DNA from: Gammaproteobacteria bacterium
Lineage (GTDB): Bacteria > Pseudomonadota > Gammaproteobacteria > Ga0077536
DNA length: 64,000 bases
Direction of reading: 5' to 3'
Assembly: GCA_963662545.2 (NCBI GenBank)
Contig: CAXXLL010000002.1
Coordinates: forward strand, 1,824,001-1,888,000
The notes under the pieces were generated by a model. The model was given only the letters and a program-made list of their open reading frames with translations. It did not search any database and was not told the origin of the DNA. A program made the position numbers and the translations under genes. Positions 239 to 16,949 of this stretch are shown in pieces (the stretch's first letter is position 1; each line of letters begins with the position of its first letter).

Positions 239-1378
239 TCAGGCCGCTTTACTGTCGTCCCGCATGAACGCCGGGGGACCGTCGACTTGCATGTCGAACG
301 GCGGGCTGTGGCCGAGTTTCTTGAGTTCCGGCATGACTTCCCGCGCAAACAGGCTCAGGTTGTCCTGCGCCATTTTCTGTTCCATCCCGGCGTAGCTGAA
401 AACACCCGTGAACCCGCAGCAATCGGTGCGGGCGTGGATATCCTTGACCTTTTCGTAGCACTGTTCGGGCGTACCCCAGACCTGCAGGCTCATGAAGAAT
501 TCCGCCATGCCGTCCACGCCTTCCGATTCCATCGTCTCGGTCAGCCGCTTGTAATATTCGTAGCCCTTGGTGTGCTCGAAATGATCACTCTGCATTTCGT
601 AGTGCTTGACCACGGATTGCCAGTAACCGCCAATGTACTTGCGCGCTATCGCCTCCGCCTTGGCCGCGTCCTTGTCGCAGGCCACCCAGCCGGCGATATA
701 CGGGCGCGGCGCAGCGACACCCTGTTCGGCGAGAAACAGCTTGTTGTATTCAGCGAGTTCGGCGGCGTGCTCTTCCCACGGCTTCTGAGGAATGACGAGG
801 ATGCCAATGCCGAGCCGCGCCATGATCAAGGAGGATTCGGGTGAAATCGCGGCCGCGTAAGTGCGGTTTTTGAACGAGCGGAACGGCTCGGGGCGAATTC
901 GTACCCTCGGCTGCTTGACGTATTTACCGTCGTACTCGCAGTAGCCCTGTTCGAGCCCCTGCAGGATCATCTCTGCGCTTTCGACGAAACGCTCGCGCGA
1001 TTCCCCCATCGGTACGCGGAAGCCCTCGAATTCGACGCGTCCGAGGCCGCGGCCGATGCCGAACAGCACCCGCCCGTCCGTCATGCAGTCGAGCATGGAG
1101 ATTTTCTCTGCAACCCGGATGGGATCGTTCCACGGCAAGACCACCACCATCGAGCCGAGCTTGACCTTCTTGCAATGCCCGCCGACAAACGCAAGAAACT
1201 GAACGACGTCCGGTGTCATGGTGTAGTCGGTGAAGTGATGCTCCACGCCCCACACCGAATCGTAACCGAGGCCTTCCGCGCTCAGTGCCAAGGCCATGTC
1301 TTGTTGAATGACGGAATAATCGCTGACGCCGCTGTCGCGGCCCGGATTCTGGAAAATGGATGCCATGCCGACGTGCAT
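239..1378 (-). CDS. Luciferase-like (LLM class) flavin-dependent monooxygenase
   Basis: MHVGM..., GYDSVWGVEHHF, DGRVLFGIGRG, WGTPEQC, LFAREVMP; ATG at 1378 preceded by GGAGA. Confidence 0.9.
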   Translation of the reverse strand: MHVGMASIFQNPGRDSGVSDYSVIQQDMALALSAEGLGYDSVWGVEHHFTDYTMTPDVVQFLAFVGGHCKKVKLGSMVVVLPWNDPIRVAEKISMLDCMTDGRVLFGIGRGLGRVEFEGFRVPMGESRERFVESAEMILQGLEQGYCEYDGKYVKQPRVRIRPEPFRSFKNRTYAAAISPESSLIMARLGIGILVIPQKPWEEHAAELAEYNKLFLAEQGVAAPRPYIAGWVACDKDAAKAEAIARKYIGGYWQSVVKHYEMQSDHFEHTKGYEYYKRLTETMESEGVDGMAEFFMSLQVWGTPEQCYEKVKDIHARTDCCGFTGVFSYAGMEQKMAQDNLSLFAREVMPELKKLGHSPPFDMQVDGPPAFMRDDSKAA

Positions 1379-1476
1379 ATTGCGGTCTCCCGTGGTGGTC
1401 GCCGCCACCGAAATTTGAAGCTTGGTGCGCACCCTACGGGGGGGCACAGTATGAAGTCAACCGTGCGGGTTTGGTC

Positions 1477-2310
1477 TTAGGATGCAAATAATGCGATGGT
1501 CCGCACTTCGATACTCTGCCGCGCCGGCGCGTCGGCGGGCGCGCCCGGATCCTTGAAGGCGGTATGCGCCGAATAGCGCGCACGCCCGTCCCGGGCTGAA
1601 TCGAAGCATTTGAGCAGGAGCACTTCATCCTGACGCATCTGTGAGATGTAGAACCAGCGGTGCGCGGGGTTGTGCCGCACGCTGTAGACCTCACCGGCGC
1701 GGTCCTCGTAGTTGAGATCAGTTGCGATGAAATCCGACGGTTCGATGCTCTTGGCGTCGCAAACGGCAAGTGGCATATCGATCACCGGCTGCATGAGCGG
1801 CCGCCAAACGTTAATAAATGCAAAACGGCGTTGGGCCAAGTCTTCCGCTTCGTCACCCATGAGGTCACGTACGCGCTGCGGACCGGATTTTTCCGTGTAG
1901 TCGTTGTGTACGAAGCGTACCGGTTCGCGTATGCCTGACCCGTCCTGCTCGGACAGCGGCTTGTTACGGACGTTGTGATCGAAGGCATGAACACGGATAG
2001 CTCCCGTCCTGGCTTTAACGATCGCTTCCGATTCCGGGTAGTAGTCCGTCCTTATCACGCCGTCGTTGTAAAAATCGCTGGTGGATGAAGAATGCCGTAC
2101 GGCGGCGAAGCCGTTTTCGTCCAGCGAGACCGTGTCCATGATCGCGCGTAAATCGAACACGCTGACCGTCTGCCGATCGGCCCCAGGCCGGGGCGGCACC
2201 TGGCCTTGTTCGGTTTCGTACAAGTAGTAAGCCGGCCGCTCACCGGTGTAATCGAGGTAGTTGAGGGTCGTCTCAACACGGTCGAGGGCGGCGACATCAA
2301 CTTCAAGCAT
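1477..2310 (-). CDS. CmcJ/NvfI/AsaB-like oxidoreductase (probably Fe(II)/2-oxoglutarate type)
   Basis: VHNDYT, FINVWRP, PLAVCDA, AHTAF and RQSIEVR motifs; GGAGG before ATG 2310. Confidence 0.8.
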   Translation of the reverse strand: MLEVDVAALDRVETTLNYLDYTGERPAYYLYETEQGQVPPRPGADRQTVSVFDLRAIMDTVSLDENGFAAVRHSSSTSDFYNDGVIRTDYYPESEAIVKARTGAIRVHAFDHNVRNKPLSEQDGSGIREPVRFVHNDYTEKSGPQRVRDLMGDEAEDLAQRRFAFINVWRPLMQPVIDMPLAVCDAKSIEPSDFIATDLNYEDRAGEVYSVRHNPAHRWFYISQMRQDEVLLLKCFDSARDGRARYSAHTAFKDPGAPADAPARQSIEVRTIALFAS

Positions 2311-2391
2311 GCGGGCCTCCAAGCGATACGATTAAGGCTTATCCCGTAGTTTACCTCGCGCCGCCTGAAATGTTCAGCGGCTCCTCTGCGC

Positions 2392-3378
2392 CTACAAGGC
2401 CGGGAAGAGGCGCTCCTTGGGATATTCGGCGCCCACCACGTTTTGTAGCGTAATGGCGCGTACCATTTGATACACGCGCACGCGAAACGCCGGATCGCAG
2501 GACATGCGAATGTAAATGTCTTTGTTTTCGATGCCGTAGTCTTCCGCCAGCCATACCATGAGGTTCCGCGTGGCATCGAGGACGGCCTGTTCCATCGGTA
2601 AATTAATGCCGATGGCCACGACACTGTCCGGCTTGTCGATACGAACACAGGGTAGGCGCTTGTTCTTGATCACAGCGCAGCTCATCTGGACAGTGGAGCG
2701 CGTTTCATCGGCAATGCCGGTGAACTCCGTATCGCCCTGGCCCCCGTGAACATCACCCACGTATAGCAGCCCGCCCTCGTTATACGAATTGAGATAGATA
2801 GTGTGGCCGGCACAGATATCGCGACAATCGATGTTGCCGCCAAATGGCCCCTGGCCCAGCACGGAAGTGAATACTTCACGCTCGGGAGCGGTCGCCAGGG
2901 TGCCGATAAAGGGCTGCAAGTCCCAGGTCAGTTTGTCGGAATATTTCCCTTTACCGTCGCGCGTATGTCCACTTGGACCCGGCAAGTGCTCGATGACTTG
3001 AACGTGCGGTTCGGCACATTCCTTGAAGGTGAGCGAGTCACCTAAGGGCCCGATGCCCGGCAGCACACCAGAAAAACCGTAGCGCCAGGGATCGACCCAG
3101 TCGATGGTCACGGCCAAGACGTCGCCGTTTTCACAACCCTCGACGAAAATGGGACCGACCACGGGATTGTATAACGGCGGCCACTGCTGGGTGAGGCGGG
3201 CGAGATGCTCGCCGGTCAAGGTATGCACCTTGGGATCGTCGCTGTCATCGTCGATGAGGCCGGTGAGGGCGTCGTCGGTCTCGAGTTGAAAGGCTTCGCC
3301 CTGCGTGACTTTTAGTACGACTTCGTCGCGGTTATCGAAGGCGTATTTGTCGACAGTTGCTCGTTTGATCAATTGCAT
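2392..3378 (-). CDS. Acetamidase/formamidase family protein
   Basis: NPVVGPIFVEG, PFIGT, GGNIDC, GDVHGGQGDTE motifs. Confidence 0.85.
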   Translation of the reverse strand: MQLIKRATVDKYAFDNRDEVVLKVTQGEAFQLETDDALTGLIDDDSDDPKVHTLTGEHLARLTQQWPPLYNPVVGPIFVEGCENGDVLAVTIDWVDPWRYGFSGVLPGIGPLGDSLTFKECAEPHVQVIEHLPGPSGHTRDGKGKYSDKLTWDLQPFIGTLATAPEREVFTSVLGQGPFGGNIDCRDICAGHTIYLNSYNEGGLLYVGDVHGGQGDTEFTGIADETRSTVQMSCAVIKNKRLPCVRIDKPDSVVAIGINLPMEQAVLDATRNLMVWLAEDYGIENKDIYIRMSCDPAFRVRVYQMVRAITLQNVVGAEYPKERLFPAL

Positions 3379-3628
3379 CCCGGTTTTCTCCTTGCGGGCG
3401 AATAGAATTCTGTCTCGTAATTCGGATCACGTATTTTATCGATCGGGTAATGTCAGGAAGACGTGTCTCGCCCTGTGGCTGACCCGCCGGTGAAAATCCC
3501 GATGTCCAGTTCATAGTCAAGCGTAACCGCGATGTCAATAAATACCAACAGCGGCAGCGGCTCGGGTCCACGGTGCCGACGCGAGTCCGGCGGTATACTT
3601 GGCCACCACAGCATATAGATTGAAGATC

Positions 3629-5473
3629 ATGGCAGAGATTGCACGGACACACGCGAGGAGAAAGCGAGACCCTTCATTCGAATGGAGCGCACTCAGGGAT
3701 CTCGCGCCCTATCTCTGGCCGCGCGAACAAGCCGGTATCAAACTGCGCGTCGTCGTTGCACTCGCGTTCGTCGTTTGCGCCAAGCTCGCAATGGTCTACG
3801 CCCCGATGCTCTACAAGGTCATGGTCGACCAGTTTTCCGATCCAGCGCGCTTGCCCGTGGAGCTGCCCATTGCGTTATTGCTGGGCTATGGCCTGTTGCG
3901 GGTCATGGCCATTGCCTTCGCTGAACTGCGTGACGCAGTGTTCGCCAAGGTGGCGCAGCGCGCGATCCGCAATGTGTCCCTCAAGACATTCCGTCATCTC
4001 CATAAGTTGGCGCTCCGATTTCACCTGGAACGCCAAACCGGCGGCCTGTCACGTGCCATCGAACGTGGCACCAAGGGCATCGATTTCCTGTTGACATTCA
4101 TGCTGTTCAACATCATTCCTACCTTCCTGGAGATCAGCCTCGTATGCGGCATTCTGTGGTTCTTGTTCAATGCCTGGTATGCGATCGTGACCTTCGTCAC
4201 CATCGCGAGCTACATCACCTACACACTCGCGGTAACCGAGTGGCGGCTCAAATACCGACGCCGCATGAATGAATCCGATCAGGAAGCGAATACCCGCGCG
4301 ATTGACAGTCTCCTGAATTACGAGACCGTGAAGTATTTTGGCAACGAAGATTATGAGGCAAATCGTTTCGACCGGTCTCTGGCGCGATACGAACGTGCAG
4401 CGGTAACGAGTAAAAGCTCGCTTGCTCTACTCAATATCGGACAGGCATCGATCATCGGCGTCGGGCTCACCATCGTCATGGCGATGGCAGGACAGGGTGT
4501 GCTTGCAGGCTCGATGACGGTCGGTGATTTCGTTCTCGTGAATACCTATCTCCTTCAGCTCTACATGCCGTTGAACTTCCTCGGATTCGTCTATCGTGAA
4601 ATCAAGCAATCGTTAACCGACATGGAAGCGATGTTTCACCTGCTCGACGTTAATACCGAAATCACCGATGCCGAAGACGCAAGGCCGCTGGACGAAGGTC
4701 CGGGCAGGGTCGAATTTGACGGGGTCTCTTTTGCCTATGACGAACGTCGCGAGATCCTGCGCGATGTGAGCTTCGTTGTATCGGCCGGACGTCGCGTCGC
4801 GATCGTCGGTGCCAGCGGGGCGGGAAAATCCACTATCGCGCGCCTTCTGTTTCGCTTCTATGACGTGAGCCGCGGCTCAATACGTATCGACGGGCAGGAC
4901 ATCCGCCACGTTACGCAACGCAGCGTGCGGGATGCCTTCGGCGTCGTGCCGCAAGATACCGTGCTGTTCAACGATACGATTTACTACAACATTGCTTACG
5001 GTCGGCCTGGGGCGAGTCCGGCCGAGGTGGAGGAGGCGGCGCGGCTCGCCCAGATACACGCTTTCATCATGGGCTCACCCGACGGCTATGAGACCATGGT
5101 CGGCGAACGTGGGTTGAAGCTGTCTGGAGGCGAGAAACAGCGCGTGGCCATCGCACGCACCATCCTCAAGCAACCCCGTATCCTCATATTCGACGAGGCC
5201 ACCTCGGCTCTCGATACACGAACTGAACGCGAAATTCAGGAGGCGCTCGAGGAGGTGTCACGCGGGCACACGACCCTGGTCATCGCCCACCGCCTGTCGA
5301 CCGTAGTGGACGCGGACGAAATTATCGTACTCAGCGAAGGCGCGATCGCCGAGCGTGGCCGTCATGCGGAACTGCTGCAAGCCGGCGGCCTGTATGCATC
5401 GATGTGGCAACGGCAGCAGGAGGCCGAAACACACAGCGCCGAGCACGGAGATCCGGTCGTCGTACCGACTTGA
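3629..5473 (+). CDS. Atm1/ABCB7-type ABC exporter (fused permease and ATPase)
   Basis: FHLERQTGGLSRAIERG, DSLLNYETVKYF, Walker A GASGAGKST, LSGGEKQRVAIAR, DEATSALD. Confidence 0.9.
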   Translation: MAEIARTHARRKRDPSFEWSALRDLAPYLWPREQAGIKLRVVVALAFVVCAKLAMVYAPMLYKVMVDQFSDPARLPVELPIALLLGYGLLRVMAIAFAELRDAVFAKVAQRAIRNVSLKTFRHLHKLALRFHLERQTGGLSRAIERGTKGIDFLLTFMLFNIIPTFLEISLVCGILWFLFNAWYAIVTFVTIASYITYTLAVTEWRLKYRRRMNESDQEANTRAIDSLLNYETVKYFGNEDYEANRFDRSLARYERAAVTSKSSLALLNIGQASIIGVGLTIVMAMAGQGVLAGSMTVGDFVLVNTYLLQLYMPLNFLGFVYREIKQSLTDMEAMFHLLDVNTEITDAEDARPLDEGPGRVEFDGVSFAYDERREILRDVSFVVSAGRRVAIVGASGAGKSTIARLLFRFYDVSRGSIRIDGQDIRHVTQRSVRDAFGVVPQDTVLFNDTIYYNIAYGRPGASPAEVEEAARLAQIHAFIMGSPDGYETMVGERGLKLSGGEKQRVAIARTILKQPRILIFDEATSALDTRTEREIQEALEEVSRGHTTLVIAHRLSTVVDADEIIVLSEGAIAERGRHAELLQAGGLYASMWQRQQEAETHSAEHGDPVVVPT

Positions 5474-5649
5474 ACCGCCTGTACGGAGCCGATCGGCCAA
5501 GTGTTAAAATCTGTTGAAGAATCTGGCCGTTCCCGGGTCTTTGTCGAGGGAAGCGATACCATCCACGCGGATGCGTCGTGGTATTACGTTGCCAAGACGA
5601 CGCGAGCCTTTGCGGTCATTCGAACTACGAGGCATGAACGAAAAACCTG

Positions 5650-6623
5650 ATGTCCGGAAAGAACGCTAGACGGCGGAAACGCGACCGCGCGAAAGCGTCT
5701 TACCAGCGACGCTTGAGCGGCGTCGCCACGACGGTGGGCGTGCTCTATTCGCTGCCCTCAGTAGTATCCGCTGCCATCATTCACTTTTCGGGTACACCGG
5801 TGTCGATCGACGCGAAAGCGCCCGATGGCCTGGTACCCGAGCCAGAAGCGACCTCCGTCCTGTTCGACAATTCCGTGCTTTGGGATGTCGATGGCGGCGG
5901 CACGCCGGATTTCGTCCTGCGGCGCACTGGTACCGTCTTTGTTGAAACCGGGTCCACGAGCTACGGTGCCGCGCAAACCATTCGCAGTGTCGAAGGATAT
6001 CTCCATCTGGACAGCGGCAACAACGGCAACGGTGTGGTCATGGAATACGGTGGGGACCCTGAACCACAAGACATAGCTAAGTTGTCAAACAATGTGATCC
6101 CGAATGTACTAGTTGGTCCGGCGATGATGGGCCCGATGGGATCAGGCTCCTACGTTTTTGGCGCACCGGGCCAGACCGGGCGGATGATGATGTCTTTTAA
6201 TTCGTCGACTTCATCCATTGGCGGCCAATACAATTACGGCCTAATGAATGCAAATGTAGTGGGGGCGGCAATTACGGCCTAATGAATGCAAATGTAGTGG
6301 GGGCGGCTTATAACGGCAGATTCAACCAGGCGCCTGGGTCCTTAAATTATTTCGGCTTCAGCTTTACCGAGGGCGGCGATACCTTTTACGGCTGGGCGGC
6401 GATCCTGTTCGATCTCGAGGGCGAGGACCGGCGACTGGAAATCGTCGAATGGGCGTATGAGGACACGCCCGATACGGCCATCGCCGTCGGCGCGACGGGT
6501 GTTCCAGTGCCCGCCCACGGGCTCGCGATGCTGGCCGCAGGTGCCGGCAGCGTACTGGCCATGCGGCGCAAACGCCGCGATCTCGCATTGATTCCCCGTA
6601 CTAGCGATCGCGACACGCTCTGA
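5650..6623 (+). pseudogene. PEP-CTERM-like sorted surface protein, frameshifted by a 38-bp tandem duplication (ORFs 5650-6282 and 6282-6623)
   Basis: Basic N-region plus hydrophobic signal peptide; C-terminal VPVPAHG-LAMLAAGAGSVLAM-RRKRR tripartite sorting signal; removing one repeat copy gives a single 311-aa ORF. Confidence 0.75.
6231..6306 (+). repeat. Perfect 38-bp tandem duplication (2 copies)
   Basis: CAATTACGGCCTAATGAATGCAAATGTAGTGGGGGCGG at 6231-6268 and 6269-6306. Confidence 0.97.
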
Positions 6624-6658
6624 TCGCACGGTGCGCGATTCGCGCGCGTAACAAGCCC

Positions 6659-9469
6659 TTGGCCCCACCATTAACCGACAAGGTCCTACTGATCGGGTGG
6701 GACGCGGCGGACTGGAAAATCATGACGCCGCTCATCGACAGCGGTGCGATGCCGAACCTCGAACGGTTTCTCACACAAGGTGTGATGGGCAACCTCAGCA
6801 CCCTGATGCCGGTGCTCTCACCCATGCTATGGACATCGATTGCGACCGGCAAGCGCGCTTACAAGCACGGCGTCCACGGTTTCAGTGAACCCGATCCCGC
6901 CAGCGGGCAGGTCCGGCCCATCACCAATCTCGGCCGCCGCACGAAGGCCGTATGGAATATCCTCAATCAGAATGGCAAGCGCAGTAACATCATCGGCTGG
7001 TGGCCGTCGCACCCAGTCGAACCGATCAACGGGGTGATGGTGTCCAATCATTTTCAAACGGCGGTACGGGCGCTGGACCAACCGTGGCCGATGCGCCCGG
7101 GGACGGTGCATCCGCAACGCCTGATCAAACCCCTGTCGCAATTCCGCGTTCATCCCTGGGAAATCGATGCGGAACAGTTGCTGCCTTTCGTTCCCCAGGC
7201 GGCGGCTATCGATCAGGACGAGGACAAACGCCTGTTCAGTGTCGCCAAGGTACTGGCGGAGTGCGCCAGCGTCCATGCCGCAGCGACGGCCGTGATGGAA
7301 CTCGAGCCATGGGATTTCACGGCTGTTTACTACGATGCCATCGACCATTTCTGTCACGGCTTCATGAAATACCACCCACCACGGCTGCCATGGGTCGCCG
7401 AGGCGGATTTCGACCTGTACAAAAACGTCGTCGAAGGCGCCTACCGCTTCCATGACATGATGTTCGGGGCTTTGACGGATCTCGCGGGTGAAGACGCAAC
7501 GGTCATCCTGTGCTCCGATCATGGGTTCCACGCCGATCATCTACGCCCCCGCGAGATCCCGAATGAGCCGGCGGGCGCGGCGGAAGAGCACCGGCCGTTC
7601 GGGGTGTTCGCCATGCGCGGTCCCGCCATAAAGCTCGATGAATTGGTGTTCGGCGCGAGCCTGTTGGACATCACCCCCACCGTCCTGACCCTGTTCGGTC
7701 TCGCGGTTGGCCGCGACATGGATGGCAAGGTGCTGGTGACGGCGTTCGATCGGAAACCGGTTGTTGAATTCGTGGAGAGCTGGGATGCGATCGCCGGTGA
7801 TGACGGCAGCCATCCACCTGGGTGGCACGCCGATCCGGTCGATACCGCAGATGCGATGCAACAGCTGGTTGACTTGGGCTACGTCGATTCACCCGACGAG
7901 GACGTCTTGGTCGCCGCGCAGAATACCCTGCGCGAACTGCGCTACAACCTCGCGCGCGATCTGATCGACGCGCAACGACCGGGGGAGGCCGTGCCGGTGC
8001 TCGAATCGTTGTGGGAGCGATGGCCGGAGGAAACCCGCTTCGGCGTGCAGTTGTTCGGCTGCATGCTGACGATGGAACAAAGCGGTGAAGCACGCCAAAT
8101 CCTCAACGACATTCGTTCGCGCAAACAAACTTATGCAGCGAAGGCACGCGAGGAACTGACGTCAATCGCGGAGGCGTCCGGCAGCCGTAAGGACGCGGAC
8201 GAAAAAGAATTGACTCGCGAGGAACGCATGCGACGCATGAGATTGCGGCGGCGGGCGGTCACCAATCACGGTTCCCTGCATTACCTCGAGGGTCGTCTGT
8301 GCCTGGCTGACGGCGATGCGAAAGGCGCACTCGCATGTTTCGAACGCGTTGGCGAGGTCCAGACGCATAATCAGCCGAGCCTGCTTTTTGCCAAAGCCGA
8401 TGCCTTGCTAAAACTCGCGCGCTACGACGAGGCGGCAGCTGCGTTCGAACAAATGCTGAATATCGATCCGGTTAACGCCAACGCCCGCCTGGGCCTTTGC
8501 CGGGTCTGGCTCGGGCGCCGGCGGCCGCGCCGCGCGCTGGATGAAGCGCTGGCGGCCATCGGCCTCGTTTATCACAATCCCCAGGCCCATCACTGCTGCG
8601 GGATTGCCTGCCAATGGCTGGGGCGTATCGATGACGCCGTTCGCGCTTTTGAAATGGCCGTATCCCAAAACATGCTGCTGGTCGACGCACACCGGCGCCT
8701 GGCGAAGCTTTACCGGACGAAGCTCGACGACCCCGAACGCGCCGCCCGCCACCGCGTATTCGCCGCCGTCGCGCGGCGCCGACAGCGCGCGTTCCGTGAA
8801 AGCGGTGCATTGGATCGGGACCAGTCCTGCATACCGGCCGAGTTGCCCGACGCGCGGCTCGGTGCAGTAGGGAAACCCAAAACCTTGCCCCCACTGCACG
8901 ATGAAATCATCGTTGTTTCCGGTCTTCCGCGATCGGGAACGGCGATGATGATGCAAATGTTAAGCGCCGGCGGACTCGAACCACTTACCGACGGAGCACG
9001 TGGCGCGGATGAGCATAATCCGCGCGGTTACTTCGAATACGAAGCGGTCAAATCGATCGGACGGGATCCTCGCTGGATCCGGCGCGCACAGGGGCGCGCG
9101 GTGAAGATCGTCGCGCCACTGCTACCGAAGCTGCCGTCCGAATATCGTTATCGCGTGATCTTCATGGAACGCATCCTGGCGGAAGTCATCACTTCGCAGA
9201 ACGCAATGCTCAAAAAGCTGGGAAAATCCGGTGCCAGCGCCAGTCCGGAGCGCCTCGCCGAAATTTATCGGCGACAGTTCGAAGCGGTCAGGGAGTTCCT
9301 GACACGCAACGCCGACCACGTACAAGTCATGGCAGTCGATTACCATGAGACACTCGCACGGCCGCGGGCGACCGCCGAACGGCTCAACGACTTCCTCGGG
9401 GGTGGTCTCGAACGCGAGGCAATGATGCATGCGGTGGAGCCCACCTTGCGGCGGCAGCGCATGGCCTGA
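6659..9469 (+). CDS. Alkaline phosphatase/phosphodiesterase-superfamily domain + TPR region + C-terminal sulfotransferase domain fusion
   Basis: IGWDAADW, LSPMLWTSIATGK, DAIDHFCH, SDHGF (AP superfamily); helical TPR-like repeats; VSGLPRSGTAMMMQML PAPS-binding loop and NPRGYFE; TTG start. Confidence 0.85.
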   Translation: MAPPLTDKVLLIGWDAADWKIMTPLIDSGAMPNLERFLTQGVMGNLSTLMPVLSPMLWTSIATGKRAYKHGVHGFSEPDPASGQVRPITNLGRRTKAVWNILNQNGKRSNIIGWWPSHPVEPINGVMVSNHFQTAVRALDQPWPMRPGTVHPQRLIKPLSQFRVHPWEIDAEQLLPFVPQAAAIDQDEDKRLFSVAKVLAECASVHAAATAVMELEPWDFTAVYYDAIDHFCHGFMKYHPPRLPWVAEADFDLYKNVVEGAYRFHDMMFGALTDLAGEDATVILCSDHGFHADHLRPREIPNEPAGAAEEHRPFGVFAMRGPAIKLDELVFGASLLDITPTVLTLFGLAVGRDMDGKVLVTAFDRKPVVEFVESWDAIAGDDGSHPPGWHADPVDTADAMQQLVDLGYVDSPDEDVLVAAQNTLRELRYNLARDLIDAQRPGEAVPVLESLWERWPEETRFGVQLFGCMLTMEQSGEARQILNDIRSRKQTYAAKAREELTSIAEASGSRKDADEKELTREERMRRMRLRRRAVTNHGSLHYLEGRLCLADGDAKGALACFERVGEVQTHNQPSLLFAKADALLKLARYDEAAAAFEQMLNIDPVNANARLGLCRVWLGRRRPRRALDEALAAIGLVYHNPQAHHCCGIACQWLGRIDDAVRAFEMAVSQNMLLVDAHRRLAKLYRTKLDDPERAARHRVFAAVARRRQRAFRESGALDRDQSCIPAELPDARLGAVGKPKTLPPLHDEIIVVSGLPRSGTAMMMQMLSAGGLEPLTDGARGADEHNPRGYFEYEAVKSIGRDPRWIRRAQGRAVKIVAPLLPKLPSEYRYRVIFMERILAEVITSQNAMLKKLGKSGASASPERLAEIYRRQFEAVREFLTRNADHVQVMAVDYHETLARPRATAERLNDFLGGGLEREAMMHAVEPTLRRQRMA

Positions 9470-9572
9470 ACCGATCGCTCGAATGGCAGGCGAACTACGT
9501 GCCTCCAACTGCTGAAGGCAGAGATTTCTTACCGCTTGTCGATCAAGACCGGGAAATCGATTTGAGTTTTTG

Positions 9573-9971
9573 CTAACCCCTGAGCCAGGACAACGCGTCC
9601 GCACGTGTTCCGAAATAAGCGGTTGGAAATACCGCGGGGCTTTCGGGACCCGGTTCGGCGCCGATGGCCGGCATGCCCGCTGGCATATGAAAAGCGAAAC
9701 GCTCGACCCCCGCGGCGTTGTAACGGGGAATGATGTTCTGGTCACGCCAGTCCGTGTTCATTTGCGCCGGATTCATCCGAAACTGCGTCGTGTCCACCAG
9801 CACGCGCTGGCGCTCAAGTCGTTCGAGCTCACCGACGAATCGTTCGAGCCAACTTTGAAACTCCTCGCCGCTCATCGCGTCCGTCGAGTCGAACCAGCGA
9901 ATTTCTATGAAGCCGTCTTCTGTGCGATCGATGATGTCGCCATATTGATCGCAAAAAACTAATACCGCCAT
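9573..9971 (-). CDS. Small hypothetical protein, STAS/SpoIIAA-like fold suspected
   Basis: 132 aa; RVLVDTTQF, W....IIP.....GV.RFAF and terminal YF.TRADALSWL pattern. Confidence 0.55.
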   Translation of the reverse strand: MAVLVFCDQYGDIIDRTEDGFIEIRWFDSTDAMSGEEFQSWLERFVGELERLERQRVLVDTTQFRMNPAQMNTDWRDQNIIPRYNAAGVERFAFHMPAGMPAIGAEPGPESPAVFPTAYFGTRADALSWLRG

Positions 9972-10189
9972 TCTCGTTACCTTTCTAGTGCATCGCTCCG
10001 GTCGTCGGTTTGCGTTCGCTGACATACCCGGCCCGATTTTCCTCAACTGAAATCATTGACACAACATTTATCGAATGTGTGGGGAGGATAATCGGGAACC
10101 TCGAGTATGATCGATAAGGAAGTCGGCGGCCCCGGCGGCGGATCCGTTATAATCTCGCGCTGTTCGCACGCTCCGCGGAGGGGTCTAGC

Positions 10190-10783
10190 ATGGACATCGG
10201 CGCTATTGTCTTTCTCGTCATATTGATCGCGCTTGTCGGTTTCGTCGTTGGCGTCTACAACAATCTGGTCAATACGCGAAATCGGTTCAAGAACGCGTTC
10301 GCCCAGATCGACGTGCAGTTGCAGCGCCGCTACGACCTGATCCCGAACCTGGTCGAAACCGCCAAGGGCTACCTCGCCCACGAACGGGAAACGCTGGAAG
10401 CAGTCATCCAGGCACGCAACCAGGCACAGGCCGCGGCCAAGAGTGCCTCCGCGCGGCCCGACGACGCCGCCGCGATCGCTGCGCTCAGCGCCGCCGAAGG
10501 GGTTTTGACGGGCGCGATGGGGCGTTTTTTCGCGCTGGCCGAAGCCTACCCCGACCTCAAGGCGAACGAGACCATGCAGCAGTTGATGGAAGAATTGTCG
10601 TCGACCGAAAATAAGGTGGCGTTTTCGCGCCAGCACTTCAACGACGCGGCAACTGATTACAACAACAAGCGCGAGCAGTTCCCAAACAACATGATCGCGG
10701 GTATGTTTAATTTTTTCGCGGCCGAACTCCTCGAGATCGAAAGCGAGGAGGTGCGCGAAGCACCCAAGGTATCTTTCACCTGA
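10190..10783 (+). CDS. lemA: LemA family protein
   Basis: N-terminal TM, YNNLV, AFAQIDVQLQRRYDLIPNLVE, EAYPDLKAN, FPNN. Confidence 0.93.
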   Translation: MDIGAIVFLVILIALVGFVVGVYNNLVNTRNRFKNAFAQIDVQLQRRYDLIPNLVETAKGYLAHERETLEAVIQARNQAQAAAKSASARPDDAAAIAALSAAEGVLTGAMGRFFALAEAYPDLKANETMQQLMEELSSTENKVAFSRQHFNDAATDYNNKREQFPNNMIAGMFNFFAAELLEIESEEVREAPKVSFT

Positions 10784-10823
10784 ATGACGGATCGCGCCGG
10801 CGCAGCCCTCATGCGCTGAAACA

Positions 10824-12725
10824 ATGAATTTCTACCAGCACCAGGACCGGGCTCGGCGCAAGACCGGTATCCTCGTTCTTTATTTCCTGCTCGCGGTGAC
10901 TCTCATCGCGGCGGCCATTAACGCCTTGATCTTTGTCGCCATGATGTCTACCACGACGCCGCCCATGCAGTTGGCGGCCTGGCTCGAAAAGCCCTATTGG
11001 ATTTTTTTGACTTGTGCCGTGCTCATCGTAATTTGTCTGGGGTCGCTCGTTACAAGTCTCAAGTTACGCGGCGGCGGCCGTGCACTCGCCGGTATGATGG
11101 GAGCGCGCCAGGTCGATCCCACCACGAAAGATTTCAAAGAGCGGCAGATGATCAACGTGGTCGAAGAGATGTCGATCGCGTCCGGCACGCCTGTCCCCGC
11201 GCTATACGTGATGGACGACGAGACGGGCATCAATGCATTCGTCGCGGGCACACGACCGACGGAAACAGTGTTGGTCATCACGCGTGGCGCGCTCGATGCG
11301 TTTTCACGTGACGAATTGCAGGGCGTCATCGGCCACGAGTACAGTCACATTTTCAATAACGACATGCGTATCAATATTCAGCTGATGGGCATTCTCGCCG
11401 GGATCCTGTTGATAGGGCAGCTTGGTCGAGTCATGCTGTACTCCGGCAGTCGCAGCCGCGGCAAAGGCTCCGGACAGGCAGCGATCATCGGATTGGGCAT
11501 CCTTCTGGTCGGCTATATCGGGTTGTTTTTCGGATCTTTGATCAAGGCGGCGATTTCTCGTCAGCGCGAATTCCTGGCCGACGCCTCCGCTGTCCAGTTC
11601 ACGCGGAATCCGCAAGGTATTGCAGGGGCCCTCGACAAGATTAAGCAGCACGTTGATGGTTCGCTGTTAAACAACGCGCACTCAGAGGACGTCAGCCATT
11701 TCTGTTTTGGTGAATCCGTGCACTACGCATTTTCCTCGCTGATGGCGACTCACCCGCGGTTGGAAGATCGGATCGAAGCCGTCGACCCCGAATTCGCCGC
11801 GCGTCGTTTGTCCGAAAAGGCGGAGCGCGAAACCGCCGCGGCCGCGCCTGATGCCGCGAACAGATCACCCCTCCCGGGGATGGCTTCCGGGTTCGCCGGG
11901 GGAAGCGTGTCGACCGACGCCAGTCGAATCGCTGAATCCGTCGGCACTGTGACGCCGGAACAGATCGCGTTTGCCGAATACATCCACCGAAGGATCCCTC
12001 AGCGCTTGCTCGAAAGTACGCATGATGTGGAGACGGCTCCACAGGTCATTTACGCAGCGCTTCTGAACGTGATCGCTGACGAGGATCGCCACATCGGCAT
12101 AACGTTTTTGCGTGAGGCTGAAGGCGCCGATAACGCGGCCGCCATCGAAGATTTGAGCGATCTCGTGGCGCAATTGCCTGCTCGCGCCCGCCTGCCGCTC
12201 GTCAACATTGCCCTTCCGGCACTAAAGCGGCTCGGCGAGGACCGACGCGGTCATTTCATCGATCGTGTTCAGAAGCTGATTGAAATCGATCGCCGCTACA
12301 CGATTTTTGAGTATGCACTATTGCATATTTTGCGGGATCACCTGTCGGCTGTGGCGGAGCGCGCGCCGACTGTTAAGTATTTCAAGTTCGAACAAATTTC
12401 GACCGAACTGCGTATCCTGTTGAGCGTTCTGGCGAGAGTCGGTGCAAAATCCGAAGACGATGCGGCGGCAGCCTTCGACCGTTCATTTAGGCCCTTTGGT
12501 CTGAGTGCGATCACGCTCGAGCGCCGCGGGCAGTGCAATCTCGAGACGCTGACTCAGGCGCTAGACGCGTTGACCCAGTTGTCTCCCCTGCTGAAAAAGA
12601 ATGTCATCAGCGCCTGTGCCGATTGCGTCATCCACGACGGGAAAGTCACCGCTGCCGAAGCGGAACTCCTGCAGGTCATTGCCCTCACCCTCGATTGCCC
12701 GATGCCGCCGCTGCTCGACGCCTAA
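10824..12725 (+). CDS. M48 (HtpX-like) membrane zinc metallopeptidase with C-terminal extension
   Basis: INAFVAG, ELQGVIGHEYSH (HExxH), SRQREFLADASAVQFTRNP, THP; follows lemA. Confidence 0.9.
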   Translation: MNFYQHQDRARRKTGILVLYFLLAVTLIAAAINALIFVAMMSTTTPPMQLAAWLEKPYWIFLTCAVLIVICLGSLVTSLKLRGGGRALAGMMGARQVDPTTKDFKERQMINVVEEMSIASGTPVPALYVMDDETGINAFVAGTRPTETVLVITRGALDAFSRDELQGVIGHEYSHIFNNDMRINIQLMGILAGILLIGQLGRVMLYSGSRSRGKGSGQAAIIGLGILLVGYIGLFFGSLIKAAISRQREFLADASAVQFTRNPQGIAGALDKIKQHVDGSLLNNAHSEDVSHFCFGESVHYAFSSLMATHPRLEDRIEAVDPEFAARRLSEKAERETAAAAPDAANRSPLPGMASGFAGGSVSTDASRIAESVGTVTPEQIAFAEYIHRRIPQRLLESTHDVETAPQVIYAALLNVIADEDRHIGITFLREAEGADNAAAIEDLSDLVAQLPARARLPLVNIALPALKRLGEDRRGHFIDRVQKLIEIDRRYTIFEYALLHILRDHLSAVAERAPTVKYFKFEQISTELRILLSVLARVGAKSEDDAAAAFDRSFRPFGLSAITLERRGQCNLETLTQALDALTQLSPLLKKNVISACADCVIHDGKVTAAEAELLQVIALTLDCPMPPLLDA

Positions 12726-12746
12726 ACGCTTATGAAATAGGCGATC

Positions 12747-13382
12747 TCATGCCTGTGCGCTTGGTCGCGCCGCGACCCGGTCAAACCAGGCGCGCGTGCG
12801 GTCGTTTTTTTCGGGGATCTTGAAATCTACCCAGCCTACGAATTCCACCGCGCAGAACGCCGTGATGTCGGCCATCGTGAAAATTTCGCAGGCGACGAAG
12901 TCAGTCGCTTCGAGGTAGCCTTCGAGCCCGTCGAAGAAGCGCACCAGTGTTTGCCGGCCGCGCTCGACGAGCGCCGGAATGGCCGGAATAGAGTCCGAAC
13001 CGCCGCCCGGTATGCTCCGCTCGGCGAATCTTTCGTGTTGATTGCGAAAGATCTCGGAACCGGCAATCATCCCCTCGAATTCCATTTGACGTTGGCGCGA
13101 TTCGACCAGGGCTTTCTCTCGGGCGTCGCGCCCGAGCAGCGGCGGATCGGGCTGGATTTCTTCGAAATAGCGGCAGATAGCCATGACTTCGTCGAAGCAG
13201 GTGCCGTCGTCCAACTCGAGAGTCGGTAGCAGACCGCGTGGATTGATCTTCAAGAATTCGGGCTCGAGGTTCTCGCCCTCAACGATGTTGAGTTCGACCG
13301 TCGGAATGTCGATGCCTTTTTCGGCGATGAAAATGCGCGCCCGGCGCGGGTTGGGTGCCATTTTGCAGTCGTACAGCTTCAT
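12747..13382 (-). CDS. Glutathione S-transferase family protein
   Basis: MKLYD...APNPRRARIFIAEK, INPRGLLPTLELDDG, FTMADI; GGAGGAG RBS. Confidence 0.9.
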   Translation of the reverse strand: MKLYDCKMAPNPRRARIFIAEKGIDIPTVELNIVEGENLEPEFLKINPRGLLPTLELDDGTCFDEVMAICRYFEEIQPDPPLLGRDAREKALVESRQRQMEFEGMIAGSEIFRNQHERFAERSIPGGGSDSIPAIPALVERGRQTLVRFFDGLEGYLEATDFVACEIFTMADITAFCAVEFVGWVDFKIPEKNDRTRAWFDRVAARPSAQA

Positions 13383-13498
13383 CGAGTTCGTCTCCTCCTG
13401 TTTCGATGGGGCACGCATTCAGCGGTCCTCATGAAATATGCCGGCTAAATCAAAACGACCCGGATCTCGCGCTCTGCGAGCCCGCTCGGCTACCGTTG

Positions 13499-14839
13499 CT
13501 ACTGCCCGCTGGTCAGGCTGGATACGCTGAAAATACGTTTGATTGCCGCAGGACTCATCGTCGGATACAGGGTGTCGGTGCGCGCCGAAACGACCGTGGC
13601 CGTGTTGTCGAGGCGATCAATGTTGATCTGCCCCCGCCAACGCGACACCGACACCTCGATCGACGCTTCGCTACCGTCGTCCGGCAGCGGCCGCCGATAG
13701 ACCGTCTGCATCGTTTTCCACAACAGATTGTCGTGATTGAAGATCAAGGAAAGCGCGACGCCGAATGTCTGGCGATCGATGAATAGTACCCGGCTGCGGT
13801 AAGGGTGCCCCTCCCATACGGACTTCACTTCTACCACGTGGCAGTTTCGCAGCTGCCAACGGTCATCCGGTAAGCGGCTAAATGGCCCGAAAGTACGCTG
13901 CTTTTCCTGCTTGGTGTCGGCCACGTGGAGGATTTGCTTCTGTCCGAGGTAGGTCCATTTGTAATCGAGCACGCGCCCGGAAAAGCCCTCGAAATCATCG
14001 AGCGTTCCATTCGATCCCATGAAACTGTCGGCGCGTTCGCGCGCCGAGAACCGGCGTATGCGCCGCTCGGTCGGCAGGTAGGTGTTGACCTGGTCATCGG
14101 CGTGCGGGTCCAGCATGCGTTCAATGACGAACTTGGTGCCTTTGACATTGAAGGGGTCGAGGAACTCCATGTAATCTTTGAAGAATCTCGTATCACTGTC
14201 GGGCACCTCGACGCGGTAGTCTTGGTCCGGCAGCATCGCCAGCTTGTTCAGGTAGACGCGGTGGTAGGACTGGGTCAGGGTCCGGTCGAGACTACCGCCG
14301 CCTACGAGTCCCGCCTCCGGATCGAGCGGCGCGGGGCCGCTTGAGGACCCCACGTAGGCCATTGTCACTTCGTCGACTTTGTAACCGTAGAACTGCCAGC
14401 GGTGGATCTGATTCCAGGCGAGCATGTATCCGCCCGTAGCGGGATCGGCACTGATGATCTGCTCGTGCGTGAAAGGTCGGCCCGCCGTGTAATTTCCAAG
14501 TCGCCCATCCGCACCAATCGTGGCCTGCCCCTTGAAACGCTCGGTCGCTTCTACGTAGGAGCGGTGCCCCGGGTAGTCCGCAGTCTCCTGTATCTCGACG
14601 GTGACTTCGGGGAACTGAAATTCTTCGAAATAGCCTGGCGGTATCCAGGCCCGTAGCGGTGCGAGTTCGTCGACTTCGACGATCGTGCCGACCGACGGTG
14701 GATCGGCTAAAGTTGTTTCTGTTAACCAGGCGCCGATGTCGTCGCGCGTGACATTTTCGGCAAATACGGTTGCCAAAAAAAGGTTAGCGAATGCTGTCGT
14801 AATTCCGACTGTCAGTTTAAAAATGTTCATTTGATGCAC
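13499..14839 (-). CDS. DUF1329-family periplasmic protein (LolA-like C-terminal part)
   Basis: Signal peptide; NYTAGRPF, YLPTERRIRR, FMGS..TLDDFEGFSG, W.LR...VVE, HPY.SRVLFID; start may be 14830. Confidence 0.75.
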   Translation of the reverse strand: MHQMNIFKLTVGITTAFANLFLATVFAENVTRDDIGAWLTETTLADPPSVGTIVEVDELAPLRAWIPPGYFEEFQFPEVTVEIQETADYPGHRSYVEATERFKGQATIGADGRLGNYTAGRPFTHEQIISADPATGGYMLAWNQIHRWQFYGYKVDEVTMAYVGSSSGPAPLDPEAGLVGGGSLDRTLTQSYHRVYLNKLAMLPDQDYRVEVPDSDTRFFKDYMEFLDPFNVKGTKFVIERMLDPHADDQVNTYLPTERRIRRFSARERADSFMGSNGTLDDFEGFSGRVLDYKWTYLGQKQILHVADTKQEKQRTFGPFSRLPDDRWQLRNCHVVEVKSVWEGHPYRSRVLFIDRQTFGVALSLIFNHDNLLWKTMQTVYRRPLPDDGSEASIEVSVSRWRGQINIDRLDNTATVVSARTDTLYPTMSPAAIKRIFSVSSLTSGQ

Positions 14840-14938
14840 TAATAACCGAGTACGGACCGGGATGAGACACGCAAATCATTTCCTCTGTATAGGCTATCAG
14901 AAAATTAACGATCAACGGTTCCTGTTGCAATAAGCTGC

Positions 14939-16759
14939 CTACGCGGAGGCCTCGACGGCCGGCACGGCGGAAACCGGCGCATCCCGGAACTGCATCTTTG
15001 CGAGCCTCGCATACAGCCCGTCGTCGCGCGCCAGCTCGTCGTGCGTGCCGGTTGCGACGATTCTCCCGCCGTCCATGACGATGATGCGATCGACGCTACG
15101 CACGGTCGCGAGGCGATGGGCGATGATCAGCGTAGTCCGGCCTCGCATCAGGCTGGCCAAGGCCTGCTGCACTAGGACCTCGCTTTCGGCATCCAGGGCG
15201 CTCGTCGCTTCGTCGAGCAGAAGTACGGGTGGCGCCTTGAGCACCGCACGAGCGATGGCAATGCGCTGTTGCTGGCCGCCCGACAAGCGCACGCCGCGTT
15301 CGCCGACGAAAGTATCATAACCGTCGGGGAGGCGTTCGATGAAATCGTCCGTGGCAGCCGCGCGCGCGGCACCTATAACGGCCTCATCGCTTGCGTCCGG
15401 GCGCCCGTAGCGAATGTTTTCGAGGATGGTGTCGGCGAAGAGGACCGTTTCCTGGGGAACGATGGCGATGTGCTTGCGTACGTCCTCAGGCAAGGCGCGG
15501 GCGACATCGACTTCGTCCAGTAATACGCGGCCAGTCTGTGGCTGATAGAACGCCAGCAGCAATTGAAATACGGTGGTTTTTCCAGCCCCTGAGGGACCGA
15601 CCAGCGCGACGGTTTCACCTTGGGCGATTGCAAAAGAAAAATTCCGGAGCGCCGGTTGGGACGGCCGCGACGGATAGTTGAAGGTCACATTTTCGAACGC
15701 TATCTCGCCGAATCCCGGATCCGGCAATGCGATCGGATCAGCGGGCCGATTGGTGCGAGGGTCGGTGGCGAGCAGCTCGACTAGCCGTTCGGTCGCGCCA
15801 GCCGCTTGTTGCAGGACGCTCCATATTTCGCTTAATCCGGCCGTCGAACCGCCGACGAATATCGCGTAGAGCAGGTACTGGCCGAGTTCGCCGCCGCTCA
15901 TGCGCCCGAGCGCCACGTCTTGTGCCCCCATCCACAAGACCCAGACCAGTCCGCCGAAAATCGTGATGATGGCGTAAGCGGTCAAAAAAGCGCGCTGGCG
16001 CACGCGTCTCTTTGCGGTAACAAACGACTGTTCCACGGCTTCTTCAAAGCGATCACCGTGAAGACGCTCGAGCGTGAAGGCCTGTATGAGCGGCATGGCG
16101 TTCAGAACTTCGCCGGCCAGGGCCGAGGCATCCGCAATGCGATCCTGAGTATCGCGGGACAAACGGCGCACGCGCCGGCCGATCAGCACGATGGGCACGA
16201 CGACCGCCGGCACGAGCAAGACGATCATCATGGTCAGGCGCGGACTCGTGACGGCGAGCATGACGAGTGCACCGAGCAGCGTGACGAAGCTGCGCAGCGC
16301 AATCGACAGACTGCTCCCGACCACCGTCTGAATCAGGGTGGTGTCGGCCGTTAGGCGCGACAGGATCTCGCCCGTCCGCGTCACTTCAAAAAAGCTGGGA
16401 CTCATCTCCAGGACGTGGCGGAAGACGGCAGAGCGAATATCCGCCACCACCCGCTCGCCGAGCCAGGACACCAGGTAGAACCGCAACGCCGCGAAACACG
16501 CGGTTACCGCTGCGAGCACAAACAAGGCGATGAAATAGCGGTCTACCGCCGCGGCCTGCGCCGAACCGATCCCGGCATCGATAACATAGCGAACGGCGAT
16601 TGGCATGCCGAGGGTCGCCGCCGCGGCGGCGAGCAATGCAAGCAAGGCGGCCCCGATGACCGTCCGGTACGGTGACAGAAAAGGCACCAACCCACGCAGT
16701 GGCCGCAGGCGGCCGCGAACAGAGGGAGTGCGCAATACAGTGCCCCGATCGGAGCTCAT
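14939..16759 (-). CDS. ABCB/MsbA-related ABC exporter (fused permease and ATPase)
   Basis: RFYLVSWLGERVVADIR, GEILSRLTADTTLIQ, GPSGAGKTT, LSGGQQQRIAIAR. Confidence 0.9.
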   Translation of the reverse strand: MSSDRGTVLRTPSVRGRLRPLRGLVPFLSPYRTVIGAALLALLAAAAATLGMPIAVRYVIDAGIGSAQAAAVDRYFIALFVLAAVTACFAALRFYLVSWLGERVVADIRSAVFRHVLEMSPSFFEVTRTGEILSRLTADTTLIQTVVGSSLSIALRSFVTLLGALVMLAVTSPRLTMMIVLLVPAVVVPIVLIGRRVRRLSRDTQDRIADASALAGEVLNAMPLIQAFTLERLHGDRFEEAVEQSFVTAKRRVRQRAFLTAYAIITIFGGLVWVLWMGAQDVALGRMSGGELGQYLLYAIFVGGSTAGLSEIWSVLQQAAGATERLVELLATDPRTNRPADPIALPDPGFGEIAFENVTFNYPSRPSQPALRNFSFAIAQGETVALVGPSGAGKTTVFQLLLAFYQPQTGRVLLDEVDVARALPEDVRKHIAIVPQETVLFADTILENIRYGRPDASDEAVIGAARAAATDDFIERLPDGYDTFVGERGVRLSGGQQQRIAIARAVLKAPPVLLLDEATSALDAESEVLVQQALASLMRGRTTLIIAHRLATVRSVDRIIVMDGGRIVATGTHDELARDDGLYARLAKMQFRDAPVSAVPAVEASA

Positions 16760-16949
16760 CCCAAAACGATTCCTTTGAGCGCACGGCACAATCCGCAAGC
16801 GGTTCTCGCGATAGTTGACGGGGCCGAGTTATTAGGGGTGAAGTTGTTTTGGGTGCTCATTTTCGATTGGCGGCCGCGATGCGTGCGTGGCCGCGTTCGA
16901 CCATAACACAAGGCCTAGCCGTCGCGTCCTGAACGGCTAAACTGTCCCC

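Follow-up and report, generated by a model that had tools for sequence, protein, structure and literature searches.

The first 9,469 positions of a 64,000-nucleotide stretch of a Gammaproteobacteria bacterium genome (lineage Ga0077536, assembly GCA_963662545.2, C2:1824001-1888000; this whole stretch is called the window below) include a small gene for an exported protein (5650-6623) followed by a gene for a large enzyme with two catalytic domains (6659-9469), raising the question of whether the two genes belong together and, if so, what the enzyme does to its neighbour. On the genomic evidence, the linkage between the cytoplasmic bifunctional enzyme and the exported, beta-rich domain of the small protein is strict, ancient and co-directional across many phyla. 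We take the two genes to form a real module. The reading we prefer, tentatively and at somewhat less than an even chance, is that the small protein is modified by the enzyme as a cytoplasmic precursor, prior to its export.

The enzyme is encoded by an intact gene (936 amino acids, 6659..9469) and retains all residues that are invariant in its family. A preliminary description of this DNA, made from the sequence alone, had proposed a three-domain protein composed of a phosphodiesterase, tetratricopeptide repeats (TPRs) and a sulfotransferase, lying 35 bp from the small gene on the same strand; Pfam confirmed the three domains, and the gap runs from 6623 to 6659 as described. The N-terminal domain (aa 1-400, 6659..7858, + strand) is a phosphodiesterase of the alkaline phosphatase (AlkP) superfamily matching PF01663 (aa 9-291, E 4e-24, 86.3 bits against a cut-off of 23), in which D15, S54, D229, H230, H233, D287 and H288 are invariant across 37 homologues. 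Its profile matches include the phosphonoacetate hydrolase PhnA (3t02, E 2e-6) and a Xanthomonas nucleotide pyrophosphatase/phosphodiesterase (NPP; 2gsn, E 1.6e-3). Alignment to these structures places D15 at the metal-binding Asp and S54 at the position of the nucleophile Thr, and includes the S286-D287-H288-G289 motif; D229, H230 and H233 would be the equivalents of the second metal site. The central region (aa ~430-700, 7946..8758, + strand) consists of TPRs (TPR_19, TPR_2, TPR_14 and others, with Pfam matches at about aa 435-700) and its profile matches TPR structures including those of O-GlcNAc transferase (OGT).

The C-terminal domain (aa 738-936, 8870..9469, + strand) is a sulfotransferase of the type dependent on 3′-phosphoadenosine 5′-phosphosulfate (PAPS), with a match to PF13469 Sulfotransfer_3 (aa 832-914, 33.9 bits against a cut-off of 27) and a sulfotransferase fold in its predicted model (predicted local distance difference test, pLDDT, 90.1). 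The nearest folds are tyrosylprotein sulfotransferases (TPSTs), tied with CurM-type enzymes within 1 Z. Among 38 homologues the G-L-P-R-x-G-T loop is invariant (x is nearly always S), as are R101 and S109 in the numbering of the alignment (A4), and the loop, the Arg and the Ser align to the PKSGT loop and the 3′-phosphate R/S of SULT1A3, which are PAPS-binding elements. Judged from these alignments, both catalytic domains keep their active-site residues. A PDB sequence search with the single sulfotransferase domain returned nothing relevant, and one with a whole-enzyme profile returned TPR proteins only.

No N-terminal hydrophobic stretch or signal peptide was found in the enzyme, whose most hydrophobic window lies inside a catalytic domain, and its homologues align from query residues 1-12. 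Together these observations indicate that the enzyme is cytoplasmic, and because it has no signal peptide any modification that it makes would have to occur in the cytoplasm, before export. An adenosine 5′-phosphosulfate (APS) kinase domain is encoded in the genome, so that PAPS can be made there. Full-length relatives of ~900-1000 aa are numerous; those from beyond the genus are 51-59% identical. Of 7,582 scoring proteins, the top 120 each align over 96% or more of the query, and the family comprises at least 573 confirmed stretches when one genome per species is counted. Longer fused forms were absent at E ≤ 1e-30 among proteins of 1639-4680 aa, which is weak evidence.

The small gene is present in the assembly as two open reading frames (ORFs), 5650..6282 (210 aa, + strand) and 6282..6623 (113 aa, + strand), because a 38-bp tandem duplication at 6231..6307 (no strand) shifts the frame. 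The duplication is perfect (2.0 copies, 100% match in Tandem Repeats Finder, TRF), its two copies being letter-identical, and it accounts for the gene break implied by the wording "repaired substrate" of the preliminary description. The 5′ fragment begins with a basic N-terminus and a hydrophobic, signal-like stretch at aa ~25-44 (hydrophobic window at aa 25-26), continues into the first half of a beta-rich core with WDVDGGG..DF and NGNGVV motifs (core-profile match C2:1829854-1830231, window 5854-6231) and terminates at a stop codon made by the frameshift. The 3′ fragment encodes the remainder of the core, where the near-invariant YGW and WAYE motifs lie (core-profile match E 4.3e-16), then the sorting tail; the C-terminal features reported earlier, YFGFSF, FYGW, IVEWAYEDTPDTAIAVGA, VPVPAHG, a hydrophobic helical stretch and RRKRR, are all present and all located in this second ORF. 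The protein had also been called rich in Gly, Asn, Ser and Tyr. The composition of the 5′ fragment (G 13%, S 10.5%, V 10.5%, A 8.6%, N 5.7%) agrees for Gly and Ser, while Tyr falls outside its eight commonest residues.

Intact alleles of the small gene are available. Two 311-aa proteins (P0136 and P0137) fall in the same 90%-identity cluster as the two pieces from the window; P0136 corresponds to these pieces read without the duplication, the 5′ fragment being 99-100% identical to it. Contigs from four of four public runs, belonging to four studies, skip the duplication (38 bases, joint 6230->6269) and show 0 other differences from the window over 5600-6700, although such contigs are able to miss a minor variant of the gene. 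An uninterrupted small gene therefore exists in public data, and the duplication arose either very recently in this strain or as an artefact of assembly. Near-identical assemblies break the gene at other places, after ~aa 144, at aa 155-158 or at the N-terminus (P0125, P0135, P0139, P0141-P0143), and these multiple break sites could reflect recurrent inactivation, a hypervariable stretch or long-read assembly errors. A partner of the enzyme in Verrucomicrobiota is likewise split into overlapping ORFs (L082:5169-5516 and 5482-5919, profile positions 14-95 and 149-238).

We surveyed the neighbours of 80 fetched enzyme loci, searching all ORFs of at least 50 aa; 57 of these loci have at least 1 kb on both flanks. 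A first profile built from five proteins (that of the congeneric genome G001, two close relatives and two remote ones), including signal peptide and tail, matched 45 of the 80 loci at E < 1e-5. After removal of signal and tail, a profile of the core alone (160 positions) matched 48 of the 80 at E < 1e-4; of the 57 well-flanked loci, 39 gave a match, which in 36 lay co-directional with the enzyme and no more than 700 bp away. This profile derives from matches in these very loci, so its counts are not independent of them; the first profile was independent. A fuller second partner profile added neighbours in ten more loci. The cassette proposed in the preliminary description, which predicted an enrichment of YGW-domain neighbours, was thus borne out. 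The nearest core copy lies on the strand of the enzyme in 48 of 48 loci, at a median gap of 94.5 bp (quartiles 71 and 182), upstream in 35 loci, downstream in 12 and overlapped by an over-long ORF call in one; 11 enzyme loci carry two to four tandem core copies. According to their record titles the enzyme loci span Cyanobacteria, Planctomycetota, Verrucomicrobiota, Lentisphaerae, Methylococcales, Acidobacteriota, Nitrospirae, Bacteroidota and others.

Pfam identified no third conserved gene among 131 neighbour ORFs (loci L030-L068; 131 of 300 ORFs listed), these being an unrelated mix that includes an aldo-keto reductase, DUF2330, HicB, an FGE-sulfatase, a CoA-transferase and EPSP synthase. 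With no other recurring neighbour family, the module appears to consist of these two genes. The tails of the partners vary: among 36 full-length partners, Pfam assigned PEP-CTERM tails to 19, type IX secretion system (T9SS) signals to seven and IPTL-CTERM tails to two. Since tails vary by lineage while the core stays, the enzyme is linked to the core domain and not to exosortase sorting, and the emphasis that had been placed on the PEP-CTERM tail was misplaced.

A number of enzyme loci, whose neighbours were read by eye, have other genes where the core partner would be expected. In Bacteroidales a conserved secreted protein of 144-148 aa without a Pfam match replaces it directly upstream of the enzyme (L063:5481-5912, L065:1029-1460, L094:617-1060). 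In Bryobacterales/Bryobacteraceae (L059, L074, L092, L093, L102) a protein of ~424-461 aa followed by a secreted protein of ~367-381 aa does so; the longer one has a partner-like N-terminal signal region and a Gly-rich C-terminal part with a basic, PY/RLRF-like ending, and is possibly an alternative client of the enzyme. Some loci, among them L034, L051, L061 and L062, have nothing comparable to the partner beside the enzyme. In one of them, the alphaproteobacterial L034, an inositol-monophosphatase-family gene (L034:8995-9789) lies directly downstream of the enzyme; this family includes CysQ, a phosphatase of 3′-phosphoadenosine 5′-phosphate (PAP). A split module occurs in Thalassobacterium (G044:C289:2975-12433), where a gene for the phosphodiesterase and TPR parts (715-aa frame, one TAA) lies between two core-domain genes and a separate 209-aa ORF for the sulfotransferase domain lies ~6 kb away on the opposite strand.

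Counted from the core domain, at the level of whole genomes, the association is only partial. The 5.58-Mb genome that contains the window has a single copy each of the enzyme and the core domain, adjacent and 35 bp apart, and two planctomycete genomes likewise carry one copy of each, side by side; in G042 and G044 three of four core members adjoin an enzyme paralogue. The congener G001 has an ATP-binding cassette (ABC) transporter, an intact 270-aa partner and a 934-aa enzyme in the same order, its enzyme being 71% identical to that of the window, and an ABC exporter upstream of the pair is common only to the window and G001. Searches for the enzyme in 21 further genomes of the family and in 16 from other families of the class found none (the match in G024 is a relative of the phosphodiesterase domain, 28% identical, and not the fusion), and a sample of 400 more from the phylum gave 0 as well. 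This sporadic presence suggests that the enzyme and its partner were probably acquired as a unit. Similarity rankings of enzymes and partners to the G001 pair were not significantly correlated (Spearman 0.54, p 0.088, n = 11). A second congener, G002, has a decayed C-terminal enzyme remnant (L022/L024, G002:C125:32141-35659; 63% identity over aa 759-931, four in-frame stops), and the query used detected no partner gene in that genome. The module is present in cultivable organisms, among them Stieleria marina, Thalassobacterium maritimum and Methylomagnum ishizawai.

The core domain that accompanies the enzyme belongs to a large family. Across 39 partners from many phyla only G157 and W158 of YGW and Y179 of WAYE are near-invariant. 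The predicted model of the core is all-beta (pLDDT 75.6, predicted template modelling score 0.76); one of its strands, predicted with confidence, contains the near-invariant Tyr next to a conserved Trp. No family in Pfam or NCBIfam covers the core in the members scanned, a Foldseek search of the core model against the PDB gave no match at E ≤ 0.001, and an ESM Atlas search returned unnamed PEP-CTERM clusters only. The best structural matches, which hint at an HmuY-like fold, were to HmuY-family beta proteins of Bacteroidota (8b6a, 6r2h, 3h8t, 6eu8), covering model residues 1-182/188; HmuY itself has paired His ligands. The family has 15,642 representatives at E ≤ 0.001 and 7,681 at E ≤ 1e-10, and the core also occurs as three to five repeats in giant proteins; a search with a single sequence found 13 partner proteins only, profiles being needed to reveal this size. 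The N-terminus of the partner combines a basic stretch with a segment resembling L-x-x-Y-[SA]-A-x-A-G-A in 31 of 54 adjacent partners. We considered the Tyr of this motif as an obligatory recognition or modification site and rejected it, as the motif is present in those 31 only and 15 of the 54 have no Tyr there. A comparison of the motif with enzyme-less genomes had two usable proteins, too few to be informative.

The small protein of the window ends in a PEP-CTERM-type sorting tail (6501..6575, + strand) made up of VPVPAHG, a hydrophobic helix and RRKRR. At aa 74-98 of the 113-aa ORF the tail narrowly exceeds the TIGR02595 cut-off of 16 bits, with a borderline 17.8, and it reaches 19.4 bits in the genome scan (C2:1830501-1830575), while the Pro-Glu-Pro motif itself is missing, VPVPAHG being degenerate, and PF07589 did not match the small protein at E ≤ 0.01. 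The closest relatives have VPVPAHG or IPIPAHG, and the canonical VPEP or IPEP is found in more distant partners.

The preliminary description had noted that the window contains no exosortase and suggested looking elsewhere in the genome. Both parts were correct, as the only two PF09721 matches of the genome (C2:2246019-2246783 and C3:132664-133125) fall outside the window. The intact one scores 581 bits with TIGR04152 (cut-off 400), which identifies it as XrtD, the type specific for VPLPA-CTERM. Genes for WcaI-like and WecA/MraY-like glycosyltransferases flank it (L002, C2:2244519-2248283), and the best VPLPA-CTERM match of the genome (C2:2242686-2242751) lies ~3 kb from it. XrtD being the only whole exosortase, we considered the tail of the small protein as a VPLPA-CTERM. 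This was rejected, since among 12 TIGR03370 matches in the genome at E ≤ 1, three of them above the cut-off, the tail (C2:1830501-1830575) does not appear. The second exosortase is the C-terminal half of an XrtA-like gene, aligning to XrtA positions 153-261 plus the EpsI domain. This truncated gene (L003, C3:131164-134625, ORFs 811..1827(-) and 1971..2858(-)) directly adjoins an insertion sequence (IS)-type transposase ORF as well as a glycosyltransferase of the PEP-CTERM/XrtA system, and tblastn found no N-terminal half of XrtA in C3:125000-142000 (~7-9 kb around the remnant). Because the XrtA-like gene is only half present, the ~13 PEP-CTERM proteins of this genome may be without their usual sortase.

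How then would the module work? In the reading that we prefer, the small exported protein, with its signal peptide, ~160-residue beta-rich core (YGW, WAYE) and lineage-specific sorting tail, would meet the enzyme in the cytoplasm as a precursor. The TPRs would hold this precursor for sulfation by the sulfotransferase domain, with PAPS as the donor; one candidate acceptor site is a conserved Tyr such as that in WAYE. The modified protein would then be exported by Sec and sorted by its own tail, here of the PEP-CTERM type. The phosphodiesterase domain might clear the PAP by-product, or might add or remove a phospho group. A two-gene unit without exporter or pathway genes makes an enzyme-client relation the simplest one. 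The bolder form of this proposal, a dedicated system of many phyla in which a TPST-like enzyme places O-sulfate, perhaps at a tyrosine, on a specific beta-sandwich acceptor domain that is still to be exported, we consider doubtful.

Several observations weigh against the preferred reading. The requirement that a cytoplasmic enzyme acts on a Sec substrate before its export is unusual. Given its place in the predicted model, the near-invariant Tyr may serve the structure or a ligand site and not be the residue modified. The core family, with its 15,642 representatives, is far larger than the set linked to the enzyme: in one Chitinophagales genome four of 19 core copies adjoin the enzyme and 15 do not, and weaker core-like proteins occur in three of the 400 sampled phylum genomes, all without the enzyme. 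Conversely, 18 of the 57 well-flanked enzyme loci have no core match; ten genomes without a core match beside the enzyme comprise six with a core homologue elsewhere and four with none at E ≤ 1e-5, these being metagenome-assembled genomes of unknown completeness.

Many of the same features would suit an enzyme that sulfates or phospho-processes a cytoplasmic small molecule, lipid or glycan, with the surface protein binding, presenting or sensing the product or a related external ligand and so taking part without being the substrate. The conserved residues of the core are aromatic (YGW, W-A-Y), as in many binding modules, its repeats in giant proteins are typical of binding or adhesion modules, and the HmuY-like structural hints fit a ligand-binding domain. 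The enzyme itself offers some support, its sulfotransferase fold tying with CurM-type small-molecule enzymes and its phosphodiesterase domain being nearest to phosphonoacetate hydrolase and NPP, both small-molecule hydrolases. However the product would need an exit route, and no exporter, glycosyltransferase or pathway gene is conserved among the 131 neighbours; the position of the TPRs between the catalytic domains also fits a protein or peptide client better, from what is generally known of TPRs. We regard this alternative, the main rival, as rather unlikely, though it has to be taken seriously.

An improbable explanation is that the small protein is an uncleaved membrane partner or regulator, whose basic N-terminal region and helix recruit or control the enzyme via the TPRs. 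The N-terminus is unusually conserved for a signal peptide, in that 31 of 54 adjacent partners share the motif, and the Bryobacterales upstream protein differs from the partner yet has a similar N-terminus. The motif is missing however from the other 23, 15 of the 54 lack its Tyr, most members have an A-x-A-type site directly before the conserved first strand, as expected for a cleaved signal peptide, and the C-terminal sorting tails imply full export. Finally, that the genes have no functional link and are neighbours by shared descent or operon hitch-hiking is disfavoured as very improbable, for although kin are not independent (many loci come from related lineages of the Planctomycetes-Verrucomicrobia-Chlamydiae (PVC) group and Bacteroidota) and the partner is missing in 18 of 57 well-flanked loci, adjacency recurs in at least eight phylum-level groups, in both gene orders (35 upstream, 12 downstream) and among differing neighbours, the single copies lie 35 bp apart in a 5.58-Mb genome, and the absence of the enzyme from 400 sampled phylum genomes points to a pair probably acquired as a unit.

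Should the enzyme indeed act on the small protein, the pair would define a post-translational modification widespread among bacterial surface proteins, and a function would be gained both for a conserved family of ~935-aa enzymes in the genomes of hundreds of species (the at least 573 confirmed stretches) and for a large extracellular domain family without a Pfam or NCBIfam match in the members scanned. To our knowledge, bacterial protein sulfation is known essentially from one case, RaxST-RaxX. Should the sulfation reading be true, protein sulfation would be a common bacterial surface modification and not a Xanthomonas curiosity, with an acceptor family of more than 15,000 sequence clusters. 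Even if the enzyme acts on a non-protein molecule, the strict pairing provides a handle on the function of both families. Our literature search found no paper describing this two-gene module, and a search on PEP-CTERM or exosortase together with sulfotransferase or sulfation, judged by titles and the starts of abstracts, found none on protein sulfation of such cargo.

Context genes at 239-5473 and 10190-16798 of the window are unrelated to the pair. They include a luciferase-like monooxygenase, a CmcJ/NvfI-family oxidoreductase, a formamidase-family protein, LemA, an M48 peptidase, a glutathione S-transferase (GST) and a DUF1329/LolA-like protein, together with two ABC exporters (3599..5473 and 14939..16798). 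Promoter and terminator scans of 3400-10200 gave counts not above those of shuffled sequence, and Rfam gave no match at E ≤ 0.1 over the same interval.

The module can be compared with several known systems. PEP-CTERM/exosortase sorting has been described by Haft et al. 2006 (PMC1569441). The protein of the window resembles such cargo in having a motif, helix and basic cluster that pass TIGR02595, in a genome with exosortases. It differs in having VPVPAHG and not PEP, in not matching PF07589 and in that the pairing follows the core and not the tail; the module is therefore not part of the exosortase system as such. The metal-binding Asp, nucleophile site and SDHG metal motif of the enzyme align with those of NPP and phosphonoacetate hydrolase (2gsn, 3t02). 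The alignment to these structures is limited however to the first ~70 residues and the SDHG region (best E 2e-6), and an invariant Ser, not Thr, occupies the nucleophile position. The enzyme also joins this domain with TPRs and a sulfotransferase in one chain, and our literature search found no characterised protein of that architecture.

The sulfotransferase domain is 16-19% identical to the animal enzymes TPST1 and TPST2 (5wrj, 5wri, 3ap1-3, 9wwe; tick 8w5z), a match that ties within 1 Z with CurM and olefin-synthase sulfotransferases. Animal TPSTs are membrane enzymes of the Golgi lumen, whereas the domain described here has ~200 aa, is predicted to be cytoplasmic and is fused to others. 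In layout the preferred reading resembles pairs of a cytoplasmic glycosyltransferase and an adjacent adhesin (HMW1C-HMW1, Aah-AIDA-I), in which a surface protein is modified before Sec export, although the chemistry is different and the families are unrelated.

RaxST is a single-domain enzyme and RaxX a short peptide that leaves the cell through its own transporter, and the genes raxX and raxST are linked. RaxST is reported to sulfate secreted RaxX in Xanthomonas (PMC4646787, PMC4892823). As would be the case in our proposal, a PAPS-dependent sulfotransferase without an export signal acts in Xanthomonas oryzae on a protein that is secreted later (PMC4646787, PMC4892823). The module of the window differs from RaxST-RaxX in its folded, Sec-type partner of ~250-310 aa with a sorting tail and in the AlkP-type domain and TPRs added to its enzyme. 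By analogy, RaxST-RaxX would be the closest known way of working for the modification of the small protein that we propose.

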